A stretch of 64,000 nt of DNA. Source: Chloroflexia bacterium (GTDB taxonomy: Bacteria; Chloroflexota; Chloroflexia; QHBQ01; JADMIH01). The stretch is taken from contig DATINP010000044.1 of assembly GCA_035474135.1 (NCBI GenBank), positions 4,295-68,294 on the forward strand, given 5' to 3'. Shown one piece after another: positions 11,492-20,045 of the stretch. Made by a program: the position numbers and the translations under genes. Position 1 is the stretch's first letter, and every line of letters starts with the position of its first letter. Below the pieces are notes generated by a model that saw nothing but the letters and a program-made list of their open reading frames with translations, was not told the origin of the DNA and made no database searches.

Positions 11492-12577
11492 TTAATCTCC
11501 AAGATCCTTTTCCACGCCGAACATGACGTATAGCTTACGGGCGATCACGCAAATGGTTGCAAGGTCAAGGCGCTCTTCGAGGGAGAGGTTGGCGTCGGCG
11601 TCCACGCTGTCGGCGAAGCTTTGCATCATAGCGGAAATGCGAGCCAACTTGGAGCGCCGCGCCCGACGGTTGGCACGCGCCATCAGCATCAGGCGGTGCA
11701 TCTGGCCTGCGGGAGTATCCTCTTTAGCCAAACGCTCAAGGTCGCGCTTCAGCTTGCGGTCGATCTGTACCTCTACGCCGTCCACCAGCACCGTCTCCAT
11801 GGTTGAGGTCGAAGAAGTGTCGCCTTCATCCTCGCCGACGAAGTCGGATTCGCCGCGCTTCTCTTTTAGCTGGCGGATGTACGTGGGGAGGTCGTCGGTG
11901 GTGATCTCGCCCGCGAGAAGCTGGCGGATCATATCTGCACGGTCGTCTGCGTCCGCCACTTTAATCAGGTTGGCGACAGCACGCAGGCTGTCGGGCTTGG
12001 CCTCGATCAGGGCCTGTATATCAGCGGGCGCTCTGGCGGCGCGTACCCTGTTGTAAACGTAGCCAAGCTTCTTGCCCACCTCGCGTGCGATCTGCTCCAG
12101 TGTGAAGCCCATCTCGGCGCTCATCAGCAGATAAATACGGCCTTCTTCGAGAGGCGAGAGGTCTTCGCGCTGGATATTCTCGGTGATGGCGAGAGTGACC
12201 ATCTCCTCGTCTGTGAGTTCCTTGACGATGACGGGCAGGGTAGAAAGACCGATCATGCGTGAGGCCTCACGCCTGCGGTGGCCGGCGGTAAGCTGGTAGT
12301 GGCCCTTGAGCTCGGGGTGAGGACGAGCGGTAAGGACGCCCTGAAAGCCCTGGGCGCGTATTACGGAGGCTAGTTCTTCGAGAGCCACACCACCTGTGCT
12401 GCTGCGAGGCTGGTAGGGGTTGTCGTGCAGGCGGTCGAGGGGCAACATGGTTGTACGGCGCTCGCCGTGTTGGCCCGAAGAGTCGGGCGAGAGGCTGGAC
12501 GCGAACAGCCGCGACATATCTTTGCCCGGCTCATCCAGGTCCAGTTCAACAGGTTTGAGAGTTCGTTTGCCGCTCAT
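11492..12577 (-). CDS. parB: ParB/Spo0J-family partition protein
   Basis: ParB N-terminal domain with LTAGHRRREAS (box II GHRR) and LPVIV motif; start chosen at MSGKRTL (ORF track extends to 12691). Confidence 0.8.
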   Translation of the reverse strand: MSGKRTLKPVELDLDEPGKDMSRLFASSLSPDSSGQHGERRTTMLPLDRLHDNPYQPRSSTGGVALEELASVIRAQGFQGVLTARPHPELKGHYQLTAGHRRREASRMIGLSTLPVIVKELTDEEMVTLAITENIQREDLSPLEEGRIYLLMSAEMGFTLEQIAREVGKKLGYVYNRVRAARAPADIQALIEAKPDSLRAVANLIKVADADDRADMIRQLLAGEITTDDLPTYIRQLKEKRGESDFVGEDEGDTSSTSTMETVLVDGVEVQIDRKLKRDLERLAKEDTPAGQMHRLMLMARANRRARRSKLARISAMMQSFADSVDADANLSLEERLDLATICVIARKLYVMFGVEKDLGD

Positions 12578-12861
12578 GTGTGCTCCGATCCGTTGATAGG
12601 TGTGAGAATTCGTCCTATGGTTGCCGGTGCCAATGCCGATTTTGGAAATGCTTGTGGGTGATAGTATAGCCCCACGTTGTTGCGGAGGCAAATCGTGCGG
12701 GTGTATTTTACTTCATAGCAAAGTCGCGCTGATTTTGCTTGCCGGGGGACCGATCTTCATGTGGAAGCGGACACCAGGTCTAACAAAATGGGCTAAAATG
12801 AATTACGTGTCGCCGATGAGCGCCGGCACTTTAGGGACTGAGCCGGAAAGGGGTAGCCAGG

Positions 12862-13773
12862 ATGAACGAGAAAGATATTAGCCTGCCTGTTGATGGAGGA
12901 GCACAGCGCCCCTCGCCTTTTGAGCAAATACGCCGTGAAACGGACGACGGCAGCGAGTTTTGGTCTGCCCGGGAACTGGCGAAGATACTTGGGTACACCG
13001 AGTTCGGCAAGTTCCGCAATGCACTTCAGAAGGCAGAGGTAGCCTGCGAGAACAGCGGACAGGAGATAGAGGATCATTTCGCCCATGTGAGCGATATGAT
13101 CACCATAGGCAAAGGCGGCAAGCGCAAGGTCGAGGATGTGAGGATGTCGCGCTATGCCTGCTATCTGGTCGTGCAAAACGCCGACCCTTCCAAAGAGATA
13201 GTAGCCATCGGGCAGACCTATTTCGCCGTACAGACCCGCAGGCAAGAACGCTCGGACGAGCTGGCGAGCCTCACCGCCGAGCAACGCCGTTTGTACCTGC
13301 GCGGCGAACTATCGAGCCATAACCGCAGGCTGGCCGAGGCCGCGAACCAGGCGGGCGTAGTAGAGCCGGTAGATTTTGCGGTATTTACCGACCACGGCTA
13401 CCAGGGTCTTTACGGAGGGCTGAAGCACCGCGACATCCACAAGCGCAAGGGTCTGAAGAAGTCACAGCACATACTCGATTACATGGATGGAGAAGAACTG
13501 GGCGCGAATATATTTCGCGTAACCCAGACAGAGGCCAAGCTAAGGCGCGAAGGCGTGCAGGGTAAGCAACAGGCCAACAAGGCTCACTTCGACGTGGGTA
13601 GGGAAGTTCGCGACACGATCGAACGGTTGGGAGGCACGATGCCAGAAGAACTTCCGACGCCCCAAGAGAGCGTGCAACAATTGCGCCGGAAGGAAGAGAA
13701 ACGCCTTGCGCAAGGGCCTCAGCTTTCGCTTATTGAAGGCGATACGGATGGAGACGATGACAGCGGCGAGTAG
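12862..13773 (+). CDS. dinD: DNA-damage-inducible protein D (DinD-like)
   Basis: Strong collinearity with E. coli DinD as recalled (EFWSARELA, RYACYLVVQNADP, QTYFAVQTRRQE). Confidence 0.75.
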   Translation: MNEKDISLPVDGGAQRPSPFEQIRRETDDGSEFWSARELAKILGYTEFGKFRNALQKAEVACENSGQEIEDHFAHVSDMITIGKGGKRKVEDVRMSRYACYLVVQNADPSKEIVAIGQTYFAVQTRRQERSDELASLTAEQRRLYLRGELSSHNRRLAEAANQAGVVEPVDFAVFTDHGYQGLYGGLKHRDIHKRKGLKKSQHILDYMDGEELGANIFRVTQTEAKLRREGVQGKQQANKAHFDVGREVRDTIERLGGTMPEELPTPQESVQQLRRKEEKRLAQGPQLSLIEGDTDGDDDSGE

Positions 13774-15250: not shown

Positions 15251-16336
15251 CTAATCGTCGCCGGTTGCTTCGGAGATTGGCACATTACTCCCAGCGTGAG
15301 GTGTGTTTGGTACAAGTTTTGAAATGCGGTCGAGGGCAGGCCCGCCTATTACGCGTAGAAGTTCTGCCAGCAGATTGCGGTAGGCCTGGGTGTGCTCGCT
15401 ACGGGGGTGGAGGGTGACCATCACCTGCCGCAGCATGGAGGCTTCGCCATATTTGGTGCTGCGCTTAATAGTGGTCTTGAAGGCGCGTATATTGCGCTTT
15501 TGGAGGGCTTGCCGCAGGCTCTCTTCCATTGCCCGGGCCACGTTGGTGCTGGACTGCACCATCATCGCCACCGCGCCAGCCACCTGCAAGCGCGGGTTGA
15601 AGTCTTTGCGCGTTTCGTCTACGCGCTTCAAGAGCAGTTGCAGACCCTTGAGGGAGAGCATCTCGAGTTCCGTAGGGATCACCAGGTAATCGGCAGCGTA
15701 CAGGGCGTTGATGGTGAGGGAGCTAAGGTTGGGGCCGGGATCGAGCAGGATGTAGTCGTAGCGACCGCGTATCCCGCGCATGGCGTTGGACAACCGGCTC
15801 CCCCAGTTGGGTTTGCCGCGCAGGTAGTCCTCGGCTTCACTGCTGACAATGTTGTTGGGCACGAGGTCGGGGCCGAAGGCGGTGTGCAGGATGACATCCT
15901 CTAGCTCACAATCGCCGATCATAGCGTCATAGACCGTGGCCTGGAGGCCCTCAGGGTTGTGACCCAGCGACCATGTGAGATGGCCCTGCGGGTCGAGGTC
16001 GACCGCCAGCACTCGCACCCCCAGCCCTGAGAGCAACACCGCAAGGTTGGCGGTGGCGGTGGTTTTGCCCACCCCTCCCTTCTGGTTGACGAGCGCGATC
16101 ACCACAGCGCCGTGGTTGCGGTCGAGCGACATGCCCGCGAGAAAGGCGTCCACATCGGCCTCGTAGACTCGGTAATGGCCGCCGGAGGTGGAGTTGGCAG
16201 GCAGGAGGCCTTCGCGGATGTACTGGGCCACAGTGCCTGTATGCACACCCAGGCGCTCGGCTACCTCGGAGGTTCGGAGCAGGCGGCTATGTTCCCTGGC
16301 GTCGCGGTTGTCGCGCGTATCGCGTGCGTCTCTCAT
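15251..16336 (-). CDS. parA: ParA/Soj-family ATPase with N-terminal MerR/excisionase-type HTH
   Basis: Deviant Walker A NQKGGVGKTT plus N-terminal HTH (LLRTSEVAERLGVHTGTVAQYIREG); N-terminus carries an (RDx) tripeptide repeat. Confidence 0.8.
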   Translation of the reverse strand: MRDARDTRDNRDAREHSRLLRTSEVAERLGVHTGTVAQYIREGLLPANSTSGGHYRVYEADVDAFLAGMSLDRNHGAVVIALVNQKGGVGKTTATANLAVLLSGLGVRVLAVDLDPQGHLTWSLGHNPEGLQATVYDAMIGDCELEDVILHTAFGPDLVPNNIVSSEAEDYLRGKPNWGSRLSNAMRGIRGRYDYILLDPGPNLSSLTINALYAADYLVIPTELEMLSLKGLQLLLKRVDETRKDFNPRLQVAGAVAMMVQSSTNVARAMEESLRQALQKRNIRAFKTTIKRSTKYGEASMLRQVMVTLHPRSEHTQAYRNLLAELLRVIGGPALDRISKLVPNTPHAGSNVPISEATGDD

Positions 16337-16631
16337 CGTCGTCCTTTCAGTTGGAGAGCAGCCCAGATGTCCCCTTGTAGTACAGTGGTGGAAGACCCTT
16401 CTCCTGCACCATTCATACTCTACGTGCGTTACGACCGATTATTGCGTTTCGTGCGTTAGATGGGTAATATATCATGAAATCGTGTAAGTGCGAAGTTTAT
16501 CCACAATCGAAACCAGGATGACTTCCTGGTGAAACGTAACACAAACAGCGATTGATACGTATGATCTGGTAGACTGGATGGTGTAGTCCGGTATCACAGC
16601 CTGGGAGTTTACAGGCAAAGGCGATAAAGCA

Positions 16632-17048
16632 ATGTTAATAGCGTTACATCCACCTGCGTTCTTGTGGTTTTTCAGCGGGTTCCGTGGGAACTGGACCTTC
16701 ATTATAGGGTTCATCGTTATCATGCTGGTGTTGCGGGTTGCATTACGCAGCTTCTTCCCTAGAGGGGGCATGAGGCGCGGCGGGGGGCCTCGTTATAACA
16801 AGTACAACCAACCGCAACCACCGAAACCTGATCAAGGCCAAATCACCGACAAACCCTACTACGGAGCGCCGGGAACCAATAGCGAAGGACAGGGTACGGG
16901 AGCAGAAACTGTGCGCACCGGCGGGGTCGACACGCGCCGCGTGGATAACTGGAGCAGTGAAACGCCCTCGGCCTACGGCGAGCCTACCCGCCCGCTGGAG
17001 AGCAAATCTGAGATGCCGAGAGAAGATACCGACCAGACCTCTTCTTAA
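16632..17048 (+). CDS. hypothetical small membrane protein with disordered C-terminus
   Basis: 138-aa ORF with two predicted TM helices then a G/P/Q-rich tail; sits in an AT-richer intergenic block. Confidence 0.35.
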   Translation: MLIALHPPAFLWFFSGFRGNWTFIIGFIVIMLVLRVALRSFFPRGGMRRGGGPRYNKYNQPQPPKPDQGQITDKPYYGAPGTNSEGQGTGAETVRTGGVDTRRVDNWSSETPSAYGEPTRPLESKSEMPREDTDQTSS

Positions 17049-17058
17049 TCTCGGGCAA

Positions 17059-18762
17059 CTATGTGATCTTCGGTACTGAGCGGCGCAGACACGCGAAGAA
17101 GTAGGCCATTTTATTCGTCAGGCCTATCGCGCCGTGCTTGCCCTGTCCTTCGCGCGTGGTACGCTTCGCAGTGTACATGAGGTCCACGAACGCCTCGGCT
17201 TGCAGCCCCGACGTGCGCCATAACCGCATTGCTTGGCCTACATTTTCCAGCACGTGATCAGCATCTCCCAGTTCGTATGAGAAGTCTGCAACTACCCTCG
17301 AGATAAAGGGCGAATAGGCCGGGTCGCGAGCTTCTCCGGGTTCGTTCCCAGAAGCCTTTTTGACCAAGTTATGACTCGAGTCAGCCTTCATAATTTGTTC
17401 TGGATGATCTGCTTCTATTTCGTGTTCACCGCGCGTCACCGGGGGCTGTGCACTGCCTGTCATGGGACGCGGTGTCTTCCGCTTTACAGGGGCTAGCAAC
17501 TGCGCGTCACCTGGGCGTGCATACTGTACGTCGTTGGGGCCTGTCAACTGTGCGTCACTACCCACCTTATACTGTACGTCACTGGTGGCAATAAACTGGG
17601 TGTCACCGGGAAGAGGATACTGTATGTCACCAGGGGGTGTATACTGCGCGTCACCGGGATGCGCATACCCGCCGTCACGACCCATTGTATGTATCTGTGC
17701 GCCTGCACGGTCGCGTCGAGCCTGTGCCGCGAGGCTGCCGCGACGGGCTTTCTTGACTGGAAGGGTCGTGCTTGCTTCCTGCAAAGCTCCTGCTGTAGCG
17801 TCGGCTTCTGTGTCGTCTCCGGTTGGGGTTTGTCCGTTCTTCCCCGGTTTGAGCAGGTTGCGGATCTCGTCCAAGAGGGGGCTGAAGTCGTAGGCGTTCG
17901 AGTCTTGCCCGCCGTCGCTCTTGGTGCGGCGTACCAGCCGAAGCGAGCCGCGCTCGACCAGTCCCGTCTTGATGCGGTGCAGATAGGCGGCTGTGTAACC
18001 CGTCTGCAAGGCCATACGCACTATGCTGGGATAGGGCAGGGATGTGTCCCACTGGTATGAGAAAATGTAGGCCACGAACCACACCTGCTGTGGGGTCATG
18101 TCCAGTTCTTTACTGTATGTAAACAGGGCGCGTGGCACCGCTGCCACTCCGTAGCGGGTCAGTACCCTGCCGTAGCGGGCCACAAAGCTTGGGTCGTGCT
18201 GGGCGCGCTCGATCTCTTCGATGCCGCGCTCGTACCCGTTCTCATGCCCGTTGCGTTGGGGGAAATCTGGGACGCGTGTGGGGTCGTAAATCGAGCTTAT
18301 GGGATTGCTGTTGATCCTGCTTTTGACGTGCTCGGTAATGCACGATTCGAGCCTCTCGAACAGGGCGGCGAAGTCGTAGTAGTTCGACTCTTGCCCGCGC
18401 TCCTGCGACCTCCTGGGCAGGACCAGCAGGTAGCCCATGCCCTGTAGCTCGTCGCTGTATCGTTGTAACTGCCTCTTGCTCATGCCCGATGCGCGGGACA
18501 TCACGCCCAGGCTGGGGTAGGGGAGGTCTTCGTCCCATTTATGTGACAGGATGTAGGAGATGAACCATACATGCTGGGCGTAGAGGTCGAGCTTACCACC
18601 GAAGTGGTACAGCGCCGACGGCAGGGCCGCGATCCCGTGTTGCAGGATCACTCTGCCGAAACGCGCCGCGAAGCTATTGCCTGTCCCGGCAAAGGTGCCC
18701 GGGTTGACCTCTATATCGCCGTTTTGTCCTACCCTGCCCCTCTGTTCTATATTTTTGGGCAT
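17059..18762 (-). CDS. putative replication-initiator-like DNA-binding protein with tandem winged-helix domains and an octapeptide repeat
   Basis: Two roughly 110-aa paralogous domains (ARFGRVILQHGIAALP... and ARYGRVLTRYGVAAVP..., each ending SN.YDF); 8 x (xGDxQYxx) repeat; GGAGG RBS 8 nt upstream of ATG at 18762. Confidence 0.45.
   Translation of the reverse strand: MPKNIEQRGRVGQNGDIEVNPGTFAGTGNSFAARFGRVILQHGIAALPSALYHFGGKLDLYAQHVWFISYILSHKWDEDLPYPSLGVMSRASGMSKRQLQRYSDELQGMGYLLVLPRRSQERGQESNYYDFAALFERLESCITEHVKSRINSNPISSIYDPTRVPDFPQRNGHENGYERGIEEIERAQHDPSFVARYGRVLTRYGVAAVPRALFTYSKELDMTPQQVWFVAYIFSYQWDTSLPYPSIVRMALQTGYTAAYLHRIKTGLVERGSLRLVRRTKSDGGQDSNAYDFSPLLDEIRNLLKPGKNGQTPTGDDTEADATAGALQEASTTLPVKKARRGSLAAQARRDRAGAQIHTMGRDGGYAHPGDAQYTPPGDIQYPLPGDTQFIATSDVQYKVGSDAQLTGPNDVQYARPGDAQLLAPVKRKTPRPMTGSAQPPVTRGEHEIEADHPEQIMKADSSHNLVKKASGNEPGEARDPAYSPFISRVVADFSYELGDADHVLENVGQAMRLWRTSGLQAEAFVDLMYTAKRTTREGQGKHGAIGLTNKMAYFFACLRRSVPKIT
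17487..17680. repeat. 8 x 24-bp tandem repeat inside the Rep-like gene (iteron-like; encodes xGDxQYxx)
   Basis: Each unit ends ACTG(Y)(R)(Y)GTCAC with exact 24-bp period (GTCAC ends at 17510, 17534, ... 17678). Confidence 0.8.
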
Positions 18763-18781: not shown

Positions 18782-18810
18782 TTGACAGGAGGATGGCCCG
18801 GTGCTACAAT
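18782..18810 (+). promoter_or_regulatory. consensus sigma70-type promoter (TTGACA-17-TACAAT)
   Basis: TTGACA 18782-18787, 17-nt spacer, TACAAT 18805-18810; points away from the Rep-like gene. Confidence 0.55.
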
Positions 18811-18816
18811 GCTTTT

Positions 18817-18909
18817 GAGCATACATTGTGCCGGTGATCCTCCTCCCAAGAGGGCCACACCGACGGAATCTTCAAAGCCTGACTGTTACCAGCAGTCGGG
18901 TTTTTATTT
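18817..18909 (+). ncRNA. putative small RNA of about 90 nt (promoter plus terminator defined), divergent from the Rep-like gene
   Basis: Consensus promoter at 18782-18810 and an 8-bp-stem hairpin followed by TTTTTATTT at 18878-18909; no ORF in between. Confidence 0.4.
18878..18909 (+). terminator. rho-independent terminator
   Basis: CCTGACTG/CAGTCGGG stem (one G-U pair), 7-nt loop, then TTTTTATTT. Confidence 0.6.
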
Positions 18910-19131
18910 GTCCGTCGTAAGTTCACCTGTGATGTGGAAGCCATTGAACCGGGCTGCCTTGTGTGCCTCGTGGGCTGAGCTGTCGCGTTCCCAGGCGCTC
19001 TTGCTCGTTCCCCGCACACCTCCCGATCTCTGTACTTCCATCATTGTCTGATTGCTAGGTCATCGTGTTATTCCTCCCGCGTAACCCGAAAAAACGGCTC
19101 GAAAAAAGGATACAAAAATGCTCCATGCCTA

Positions 19132-19160
19132 TTGACAGGGAGTTGGTAGTCTGGTATATT
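19132..19160 (+). promoter_or_regulatory. consensus sigma70-type promoter (TTGACA-17-TATATT) with upstream A-tracts
   Basis: TTGACA 19132-19137, 17-nt spacer, TATATT 19155-19160; preceded by GAAAAAACGGCTCGAAAAAAGG A-tracts. Confidence 0.45.
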
Positions 19161-19428: not shown

Positions 19429-19674
19429 CTAGCCCTCTGTACCCGTGCGCTGTTGCGCCGGCACCTGGATGGTGTCGCGGCCTCTTTGCAACTGCTCAAG
19501 CTGTTCGAGGCGCTCGACGATATCGTCGTAGCTGTCGGCGTCCAACACCACGAACCTCTGCCTCCCCTTGACCACCAGCACAGGCCGCCCATTGGACGCC
19601 TGTTCCAGCTGTGGGCCGGGATTCATCCTGAAGCTCTTGTAGTCCACCACATCTCTCAACTGTATCTTCGCCAT
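19429..19674 (-). CDS. Phd/YefM-family type II antitoxin (orphan)
   Basis: MAKIQLRDVVDYKSF...VVLDADSYDDIVERLEQLEQLQ matches the Phd/YefM fold; GGAGG RBS; no toxin ORF detected downstream. Confidence 0.6.
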   Translation of the reverse strand: MAKIQLRDVVDYKSFRMNPGPQLEQASNGRPVLVVKGRQRFVVLDADSYDDIVERLEQLEQLQRGRDTIQVPAQQRTGTEG

Positions 19675-20045
19675 GAGCGACCTCCGTTCGTCTGAGCTTT
19701 CCAGTATCTGGCTTGAGATGCTATGCTGTATCTGCAATATTACTACTTAACGTATGCGCGAAGCACATATCTACGTAGAAATCTCCAACTTTCTTACGCA
19801 CAGAATCTCCAACCTACCGGATGATAGCGGATGTTGCGCCGGATAGCAATAGGTTTTTACACATCCTTTGGTTTCTCGGCCCGTCTCTTGCTTACATTCT
19901 AGTATGCCAGGGATCCTTGTCGCGAGAAAAAAATGGACATAGGACTCGGGGACGGAACACGGATCACGAAGATAACCAGGAAGCCTATGAGAGCGAGTAA
20001 GAGAACTCCAAGATATTCAAGGATCAAGCGTTTGAACTACGACTT

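Follow-up and report, generated by a model that had tools for sequence, protein, structure and literature searches.

What is the role of a gene that carries eight direct repeats of 24 bp inside its own coding sequence, and are these repeats maintained for the protein they encode or for the DNA itself? The question is raised by a 64,000-nucleotide stretch of the genome of a Chloroflexia bacterium (GCA_035474135.1, contig DATINP010000044.1; the whole stretch is called the window here, and all positions refer to it), in which a minus-strand gene encodes a 567-residue (aa) protein, referred to as Rep-like. The gene is probably the initiator of a plasmid-type (theta) replicon, with an origin that would lie inside the gene, in the DNA for a disordered linker of the protein. 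By analogy with characterized systems, the layout as a whole is best read as a plasmid or chromid replication module whose origin sits within the initiator gene. The gene and the DNA elements on which this reading depends are as follows:

17059-18762, minus strand: Rep-like gene, an open reading frame (ORF) of 567 aa encoding two winged-helix domains (wH1 and wH2), a disordered linker and a C-terminal helical bundle
17495-17678, minus strand: eight in-frame 24-bp iterons with the core GTGAC-N3-CAGTAT, in exact 24-nt phase
17424-17439, minus strand: isolated ninth iteron (GTGACGCGCGGTGAAC), 71 nt past the last array unit and in another reading frame, encoding PVTRGE
17349-17424, no strand: AT-rich segment, candidate DNA-unwinding element, with a GC content of 0.41 vs 0.59 for the gene
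17372-17383, no strand: perfect 12-bp palindrome TGACTCGAGTCA with two GANTC motifs, the sole match in the window

The gene starts with an ATG at 18762, preceded by GGAGG, and stops at 17059. The cores of the array lie at 17495-17510, 17519-17534, 17543-17558, 17567-17582, 17591-17606, 17615-17630, 17639-17654, and 17663-17678, within the DNA for residues ~360-423. Six of the eight units match GTGACNNNCAGT exactly, with no other match in the 64 kb (6 seen vs 0.5 expected by chance; none of 100 shuffles reached 6), and the remaining two are the degenerate units ACGACGTACAGT and GTGACGGCGGGT. The encoded octapeptides follow the pattern xPGDxQYx. An earlier note on this DNA, made from the letters alone, had described eight exact-period 24-bp repeats and octapeptides of the PGDAQYTP type, and both descriptions hold, with the units found in frame. 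Outside the core the units agree at only ~60-70%, and for this reason Tandem Repeats Finder reports no more than 2.7-3.1 copies.

An array of 24-nt units is present in the linker of 21 of 21 full-length homologues, with an identity at lag 24 of 0.51-0.70 and of ~0.35 at other lags. The octapeptide itself varies among paralogues (PGDAQY, DSxQL, GNxxRI, RTGRGGQQ, GIEQGFTG, and others), and the period stays at exactly 24 nt. When the units of an array are compared with one another, identity over 22 arrays amounts to 0.562, 0.564, and 0.566 for the first, second, and third codon position, and the third-position value compares with 0.347 expected from the amino acids and the codon usage of the family (p <= 0.0015 in 15 arrays). 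Conserved columns also cross codon boundaries: GGT, AGT, or CGT precedes GAC, with the final T fixed while the amino acid changes. When the window gene is compared with L001, an orthologue of 74% identity, wH1 displays codon-position identities of 0.94/0.99/0.74 and an amino-acid identity of 99%, as under ordinary purifying selection. The array, compared with the same orthologue, displays 0.70/0.67/0.69 with no codon-position pattern and an amino-acid identity of 50%; its core columns are 0.81 identical and the remaining columns 0.59. Judged from these alignments, the 24-bp repeats are DNA elements under selection and not a peptide repeat.

Further support for selection on the DNA comes from the isolated ninth iteron. 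Each locus was scanned with a matrix of its own repeat, and the best match within 110 nt downstream of the array was recorded. In 19 of 22 loci, an extra copy of the locus’s own motif was found exactly 47 or 71 nt beyond the final unit of the array; these offsets fall a single base below two or three periods and hence put the copy in a different reading frame (p < 0.01 in 15 loci; Fisher’s combined p = 3.5e-32). Since the motif co-varies with each paralogue in two reading frames, peptide selection cannot explain it, and on sequence grounds this out-of-frame copy is the strongest single result for selection at the DNA level. The earlier note had offered two uses for the repeats. Its proposal of iteron-like DNA sites is supported by the conserved synonymous sites, by the frame-shifted and co-varying extra copy, and by the AT-rich element next to it; its proposal of a beta-solenoid-like protein repeat is not supported, in view of the disorder predicted for the region (predicted local distance difference test, pLDDT, ~30) and of the missing codon-position pattern between orthologues. 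The ninth copy, the AT-rich segment, and the palindrome were absent from that note.

Directly past the isolated copy, the GC content falls across the family to 0.34 over ~60-75 nt, compared with a gene mean of 0.58. In the window, the gene’s lowest-GC 72-nt stretch is found at 17357-17428 (GC 0.375), in a region that belongs to the lowest 0.5% of the 64 kb. A first test of this A/T bias was anchored on E/K-rich peptides, whose composition is itself biased, and the test was therefore re-anchored on the amino-acid motif DSN and limited to third codon positions. Over the 22 codons around DSN, third positions are 73% A/T, compared with the 33% predicted by the codons that encode these amino acids in the rest of the family genes (z = 18.7), and they rise to 94% in codons -12 to -7 from the motif. 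Within the segment, GATGATTCGAATCA is nearly invariant among paralogues with only ~40% protein identity, and TGATTCGAATCA, a perfect 12-bp palindrome, occurs exactly once per locus and at the same place in most paralogues (18 loci). The window and its orthologue carry TGACTCGAGTCA instead, a symmetric double change from TGATTCGAATCA that leaves the palindrome perfect, and both versions contain two GANTC motifs. Paralogues of one genome that differ in their iterons and ParB proteins nevertheless have the palindrome in common, as would be expected if a single host factor or a methylation signal acted on all of them. It is probably the site of such a host factor or, given the two GANTC motifs, a methylation target, and the candidates for its partner are a host factor, the conserved C-terminal domain of the Rep-like protein, and a methyltransferase. 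A role as parS was considered and is unlikely, as the ParB proteins of these co-resident paralogues share only 30-60% identity while the palindrome does not change.

The protein encoded around these elements was modeled with AlphaFold2 from 25 family members, which resolves three folded parts:

18316-18672, minus strand: winged-helix domain 1 (aa 31-149), from AlphaFold2 secondary structure, pLDDT 70-89
17851-18186, minus strand: winged-helix domain 2 (aa 193-304), a paralogue of domain 1 (39% identity, E 7e-33)
17065-17310, minus strand: C-terminal four-helix bundle (aa 485-566), pLDDT ~90, with a conservation second only to that of the winged helices

Residues ~31-142 and 193-304 align over 112 aa with 39% identity (E = 7e-33), and the two copies are closed by QESNYYDF and QDSNAYDF, respectively. 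Both adopt a helix-helix-helix-strand-strand topology, which is the winged-helix fold. Linker residues 308-479 are disordered in the model (pLDDT ~30), and the array, the isolated iteron, and the AT-rich tract all fall in the DNA for residues ~360-470 of this linker. In Pfam, the window protein scores 23.7 bits for HTH_36 in wH1 (PF13730; gathering threshold 25) and 22.5 bits for DnaD_N in wH2 (PF21984; threshold 27); homologues reach 46.9 and 45.3 bits, respectively, with both domains matched by DnaD_N. The homologues that clearly pass these thresholds are 40-47% identical to the window protein, and DnaD_N and HTH_36 match at E <= 0.1 in 24-25 of the 25 members. Top Foldseek matches in the PDB include DnaD (9a5c_B) and the DnaD N-terminal domain (2v79), with a probability of 1.0 and a target-normalized template-modeling score of 0.63-0.64, ranked above the two-winged-helix protein SarS and MarR regulators; the E-values are weak (0.02-0.05; 0.03 for 2v79) because the query was the whole 567-aa model. 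Among PHROG families, matches to ‘replication initiation protein’ and ‘O-like’ groups were obtained at 1.6e-8 and 8.2e-7 (phrog_391 at 8.2e-7; phrog_345 at 0.0029), and NCBIfam gave no match for the protein. The earlier note had pointed out the two paralogous domains with their closing motifs and had likened the protein to a tandem winged-helix initiator, proposing structure prediction as a check; that prediction recovers two winged-helix domains with the DnaD N-terminal domain as the best fold, in agreement with the homologues that pass DnaD_N and HTH_36.

The C-terminal bundle has no recognizable relative. No DnaB_2/DDBH2 C-terminal domain was detected by Pfam in the window protein and the family members or by fold search, and a sequence profile search against the PDB returned nothing meaningful for any part of the protein, the bundle included. 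A DnaD- or RepA-type C-terminal domain was also considered and is unsupported, since a model of the C-terminal domain alone (pLDDT 87) found no PDB fold match better than E = 3.9. Some members of ~680 aa (P0015, P0044, P0068, and others), however, carry the DnaA N-terminal domain (domain I) at their C-terminus (58.8 bits). One of these fused members, encoded at 10001-12067 of L043, has the same iterons, palindrome, and small RNA, with a phd-like-parA-parB operon nearby. The occurrence of a DnaA domain I fusion in otherwise identical modules points to a direct connection with the helicase or DnaA machinery of the host.

The small RNA is encoded on the strand opposite the Rep-like gene (rep), immediately ahead of its start codon:

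18782-18912, plus strand: divergent promoter (TTGACA-17-TGCTACAAT) and ~90-nt small RNA with an intrinsic terminator, candidate counter-transcribed RNA (ctRNA)

In 20 of 21 loci, TTGACA, a spacer of 17-18 nt, and TGCTACAAT are found 18-22 nt from the rep ATG and form a near-consensus promoter with an extended -10 element. The predicted transcript measures 86-95 nt and ends at an intrinsic terminator across loci (L001-L021, L029, and L043), spanning ~18817-18908 in the window. The terminator stem covaries, with three pairs that each display five double compensatory changes, and Rfam has nothing at gathering thresholds across the window and, near the small RNA, no more than chance-level matches. 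The rep leader can form a long hairpin with CCUCC and GGAGG elements around the ribosome-binding site. In loci where transcription reaches rep from parB or the phd-like gene upstream, the small RNA would by its position be antisense to the rep leader, and as a counter-transcript it is a candidate for copy control. Another sigma-70 promoter close to consensus (TTGACA-17-TATATT, with a TG extension) is located at 19132-19160 on the plus strand, between the small RNA and the phd-like gene, and points away from rep.

Partition genes accompany rep in the window and beyond, and in the window rep, parA, parB, and the phd-like gene are all on the same strand:

15251-16336, minus strand: ParA ATPase with an N-terminal HTH_17/MerR-type helix-turn-helix (AAA_31 1.7e-47, HTH_17 2e-11)
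11492-12691, minus strand: ParB (ParB_N and HTH_ParB), from Pfam and conserved synteny
19429-19737, minus strand: small Phd/YefM-like protein upstream of rep, from a weak Pfam match (22.1 bits vs a cut-off of 29.8)

Most loci have both parA and parB beside rep; the order is parA-parB-rep in L002, L003, L004, L008, L011, L014, L019, and L024. A phd-like gene is found near rep in eight independent loci (L001, L005, L007, L009, L020, L021, L029, and L043), either upstream of rep on the same strand or at the head of a phd-like-parA-parB operon, and its product may regulate the module instead of acting as an antitoxin. Housekeeping genes flank the module in the window, including those for the shikimate pathway, cytochrome bd oxidase, and a molybdopterin oxidoreductase, and the window contains no tRNAs. 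Between rep and parA lies an ORF of 138 aa (16632-17048, plus strand) with a hydrophobic N-terminus and a low-complexity tail, which has no Pfam family, is 48% identical in L001, and is called in the contig of P0001, a closer orthologue of the Rep-like protein (93% identity). The sole perfect DnaA box of the 64 kb (TTATCCACA) is found at 16497-16505 (plus strand) between parA and rep, 560 bp beyond the stop codon of rep, with a one-mismatch box at 16940-16948; DnaA boxes are not conserved in other loci. Bro-N domain proteins are encoded near rep-parAB modules in the window (12862-13773, plus strand) and in L013, L016, L035, L036, and L037, and an IS200-type Y1 transposase adjoins rep in L043 and L044, neighbors that hint at a mobile-element setting.

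The family appears confined to a single lineage. A large protein database holds 148 homologues, whose named sources are all uncultured Chloroflexia or Chloroflexota and most of which are unannotated, with some labeled ‘AraC-like’ or ‘GntR-family’ regulators. A scan of 185,579 species genomes recovered 39 loci, all in Chloroflexia or Chloroflexota metagenome-assembled genomes (MAGs) except for one weak partial match. A profile search of 1.84 billion cluster representatives returned 986 proteins at E <= 1e-10, of which 201 reached E <= 1e-30; among them are ~40 full-length clusters, and others are shorter and combine a single winged helix with the C-terminal domain. One of the latter, P0157 (369 aa; L045, 1198-2307), has three 24-nt units in its gene followed by an AT-rich dip (GC 0.38 vs ~0.65 in flanking windows) that contains TTCGAA, and the layout thus seems older than the domain duplication. 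Several MAGs hold multiple loci, among them MAG JBDTQH with five co-resident paralogues whose iteron cores differ, which fits the compatibility requirement of replicons. Contig L026 of MAG JBBSAN has ~48x coverage vs ~10x for that MAG’s other module contigs. On a long-read contig of 1.15 Mb (CAWCNY010000003.1), two complete modules, L015 and L029, lie 826 kb apart, at 63-77 kb and 889-903 kb. Among PLSDB plasmids no full-length homologue was found, only ~130-aa proteins with a single winged helix and 23-31% identity (the one such plasmid that was inspected is of the ColE1 type and uninformative), and 2.9 million viral contigs of IMG/VR contain no relatives; the family is therefore unlinked to any sequenced plasmid or phage.

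Origins located within initiator genes are known from several systems, and by sequence the family belongs to none of lambda O, RepA_N, repABC RepC, and Rep_3. Close parallels in organization are offered by repABC replicons of Alphaproteobacteria, in which oriV occupies an A+T-rich stretch of repC where silent mutations abolish replication, a ctRNA is encoded upstream of repC, and GANTC motifs occur in the origin (PMC3155836, PMC11514494). The Rep-like loci share with them parA-parB-rep modules in the same order in many loci, several compatible modules per genome, and large replicons with housekeeping genes (PMC3155836, PMC11514494). They also share an A+T-rich segment with GANTC inside the initiator gene, which here is under synonymous-site selection and forms part of a putative origin, and an opposite-strand small RNA just upstream of that gene, for which an antisense role is likewise predicted here. 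Iterons, however, are lacking from RepC origins (PMC3155836); in the loci described here they stand out above all other features, with 4-13 phased units per locus. The RepC N-terminal family RP-C (PF03428) matches 8 of the 25 members marginally (best 24.5 bits vs a threshold of 24.4) and the window protein not at all, RP-C_C (PF11800) matches no member tested, the order in the window is rep-parA...parB, and the phylum is another one.

RepA_N plasmids of Firmicutes (pSK41 Rep, pAD1 RepA) resemble the Rep-like family in protein architecture, with a DnaD-like winged-helix N-terminal DNA-binding domain and a separate helical C-terminal domain (PMC5703833, PMC7145576). Their iterons, the ‘Rep boxes’, are central in rep and encode the linker, as do the iterons of the putative origin described here, and an antisense RNA of ~83 nt acts against the rep leader (PMC5703833, PMC7145576). 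In pSK41 in particular, the Rep boxes lie in the center of rep, the origin encodes the linker between DnaD-like domains, and the antisense RNAI is directed at the leader (PMC5703833). The DnaD-like C-terminal domain of RepA_N initiators binds the host DnaG primase; by contrast, the C-terminal domain of the Rep-like protein has no detectable similarity to those of DnaD or RepA. RepA_N (PF06970) matches neither the window protein at E <= 1 nor any of the 25 members at E <= 0.1, the winged helix is duplicated in tandem in the Rep-like family, and the iterons keep a strict eight-codon register instead of forming A-tract semi-palindromes.

In the lambda O gene, iterons and an AT-rich tract are found mid-gene and added iterons lengthen the linker of the protein, whose N-terminal domain binds these direct repeats (PMC7466680). 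The Rep-like gene has the same succession of mid-gene direct repeats and AT-rich tract, together with the weak O-like PHROG matches, but the window protein has no match to the Pfam O-protein family, phage context and viral relatives are lacking, and the gene is linked to parAB. Rep_3 plasmids usually have DnaA boxes and carry their origin outside the gene, with iterons of ~22 bp period. In the Rep-like loci, DnaA boxes are not enriched and the array is inside the gene with a 24-nt period; neither the window protein nor the 25 members match Rep_3 (PF01051). Each monomer of a Rep_3 initiator (RepE, pi, TrfA, pPS10 RepA) has two winged-helix domains, and the iterons are direct repeats whose two conserved blocks are spaced by roughly one helical turn, beside an unwinding element rich in A and T (PMC4980987); all of these have likely counterparts here. 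Taken together, the duplicated winged helix, the strict eight-codon register with one out-of-frame iteron, the palindrome shared among paralogues, and the novel C-terminal domain make this architecture unlike that of the known systems.

In the mechanism that we favor, the two winged-helix domains of each monomer would read the two conserved blocks of each iteron (GTGAC and CAGTAT), and the eight phased iterons and the isolated one would load an array of protein beside the ~70-bp AT-rich segment. This segment would then melt, and the C-terminal bundle, assisted in some relatives by the fused DnaA domain I, would recruit host helicase or primosome components. Expression of the initiator would probably be controlled by the ~90-nt RNA transcribed divergently near the start codon, while the adjacent ParA and ParB would segregate the replicon.

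Other explanations account for parts of this evidence. The repeats may be binding sites of the encoded protein that serve partition or regulation instead of origin firing, with the protein acting as an adaptor or regulator of the par module and the array functioning as a centromere-like site, in autoregulation, in copy-number handcuffing, or as a transcription roadblock. Plasmid centromeres are often arrays of direct repeats, parA and parB travel with the gene in most loci, some homologues bear the names of AraC-like or GntR-family regulators, and the locus has no GC-skew inversion. We nevertheless regard this explanation as unlikely, as a canonical ParB with its own helix-turn-helix is already present, A/T-driven synonymous sites past the array are unneeded for partition or repression, and the promoter region has no iteron copies; the winged helices, moreover, belong to replication-associated families (DnaD_N, PHROG initiators, and marginally RepC), and some members carry DnaA domain I. 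That the protein is instead a chromosomal DnaD-like adaptor for the primosome or helicase loading, with no sequence-specific initiator function and DNA elements unrelated to its job, has little probability. The DnaD N-terminal domain does provide its best fold and Pfam matches, and the window does hold shikimate pathway and cytochrome bd oxidase genes, but genomes contain several divergent paralogues, each with its own repeat motif and parAB, the DnaB_2/DDBH2 domain is not detected, and the DNA elements are kept in every paralogue analyzed.

Two further explanations concern the level at which the repeats act. The conserved elements could function in the mRNA, as protein- or small RNA-binding sites or as structures that control the translation or stability of rep, and in keeping with this all of them are on the transcribed strand in a single orientation and a conserved small RNA gene adjoins rep. 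Such a role is nonetheless improbable, because characterized DnaD_N/HTH_36 relatives bind double-stranded DNA (PMC5703833), an A/T-driven segment beside direct repeats is the classic layout of an origin (PMC7466680, PMC3155836), the 12-bp palindrome has no loop and allows only a 4-bp hairpin, and the small RNA has no evident complementarity to the iterons. We give almost no credence to the idea that the 24-nt period reflects a peptide repeat in the disordered linker, supplying short linear motifs or a spacer, with the likeness of the DNA due to duplication and gene conversion. The units are in frame and encode a recognizable octapeptide, and repeats are common in disordered regions such as this linker is predicted to be. 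Against this, the three codon positions are equally conserved, far above the codon-usage expectation, and conserved columns span codon boundaries while the amino acid varies; the out-of-frame motif at a fixed offset in 19 of 22 loci contradicts it, and array peptides of orthologues are 50% identical compared with 99% in wH1.

Several observations also weigh against the view of the gene as an initiator with an internal origin. The Pfam scores of the window protein itself are slightly below threshold, and its gene dips less deeply in GC at the AT-rich segment, to 0.39-0.41, where most paralogues reach 0.30-0.35. DnaA boxes occur at chance level, without enrichment, in the window and 21 loci, and no GC-skew inversion of the origin type is seen at 17-19 kb, where skew is mostly positive on both sides. 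As the C-terminal domain resembles nothing known, the recruitment step is without support. The two modules 826 kb apart on one contig are odd for a single-origin replicon; some copies may be integrated or silent, or replicons may have multiple origins. Finally, the host is uncultured, and it is from the features described above that we infer binding, melting, and replication.

If the gene is such an initiator, it appears to represent an undescribed and unannotated replicon family within a known kind, the origin-within-initiator iteron replicons. Literature searches returned no description of the Rep-like family or of Chloroflexota replicon biology, and the phylum thus appears essentially unstudied in this respect. 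The locus would be an unusually clean natural case of dual coding, with a protein linker and a putative replication origin on the same bases, legible from the nucleotides alone through the eight-codon register, the single frame-shifted iteron, and the A/T-driven synonymous sites. Viewed beside the analogous systems, it suggests that an origin within the initiator gene combined with winged-helix binding is ancient or repeatedly convergent. With multiple paralogous modules in a genome, and with two on a single contig, the question arises whether genomes of this lineage are multi-origin or multipartite. It is doubtful, yet conceivable, that several rep-ctRNA-parAB modules with their own iteron specificities run megabase-scale DNA that bears housekeeping genes, possibly with more than one module per replicon. 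This would signify a bacterial chromosome or chromid that has several origins, each specific to its initiator, as known from Sulfolobus and Haloarcula, and the shared GANTC palindrome would coordinate the modules by giving them one cell-cycle or methylation signal in common. For an uncultured soil clade of Chloroflexia, the family would provide the first candidates for an origin, an initiator, a copy-control RNA, and a partition cassette, and would offer a starting point for shuttle vectors.

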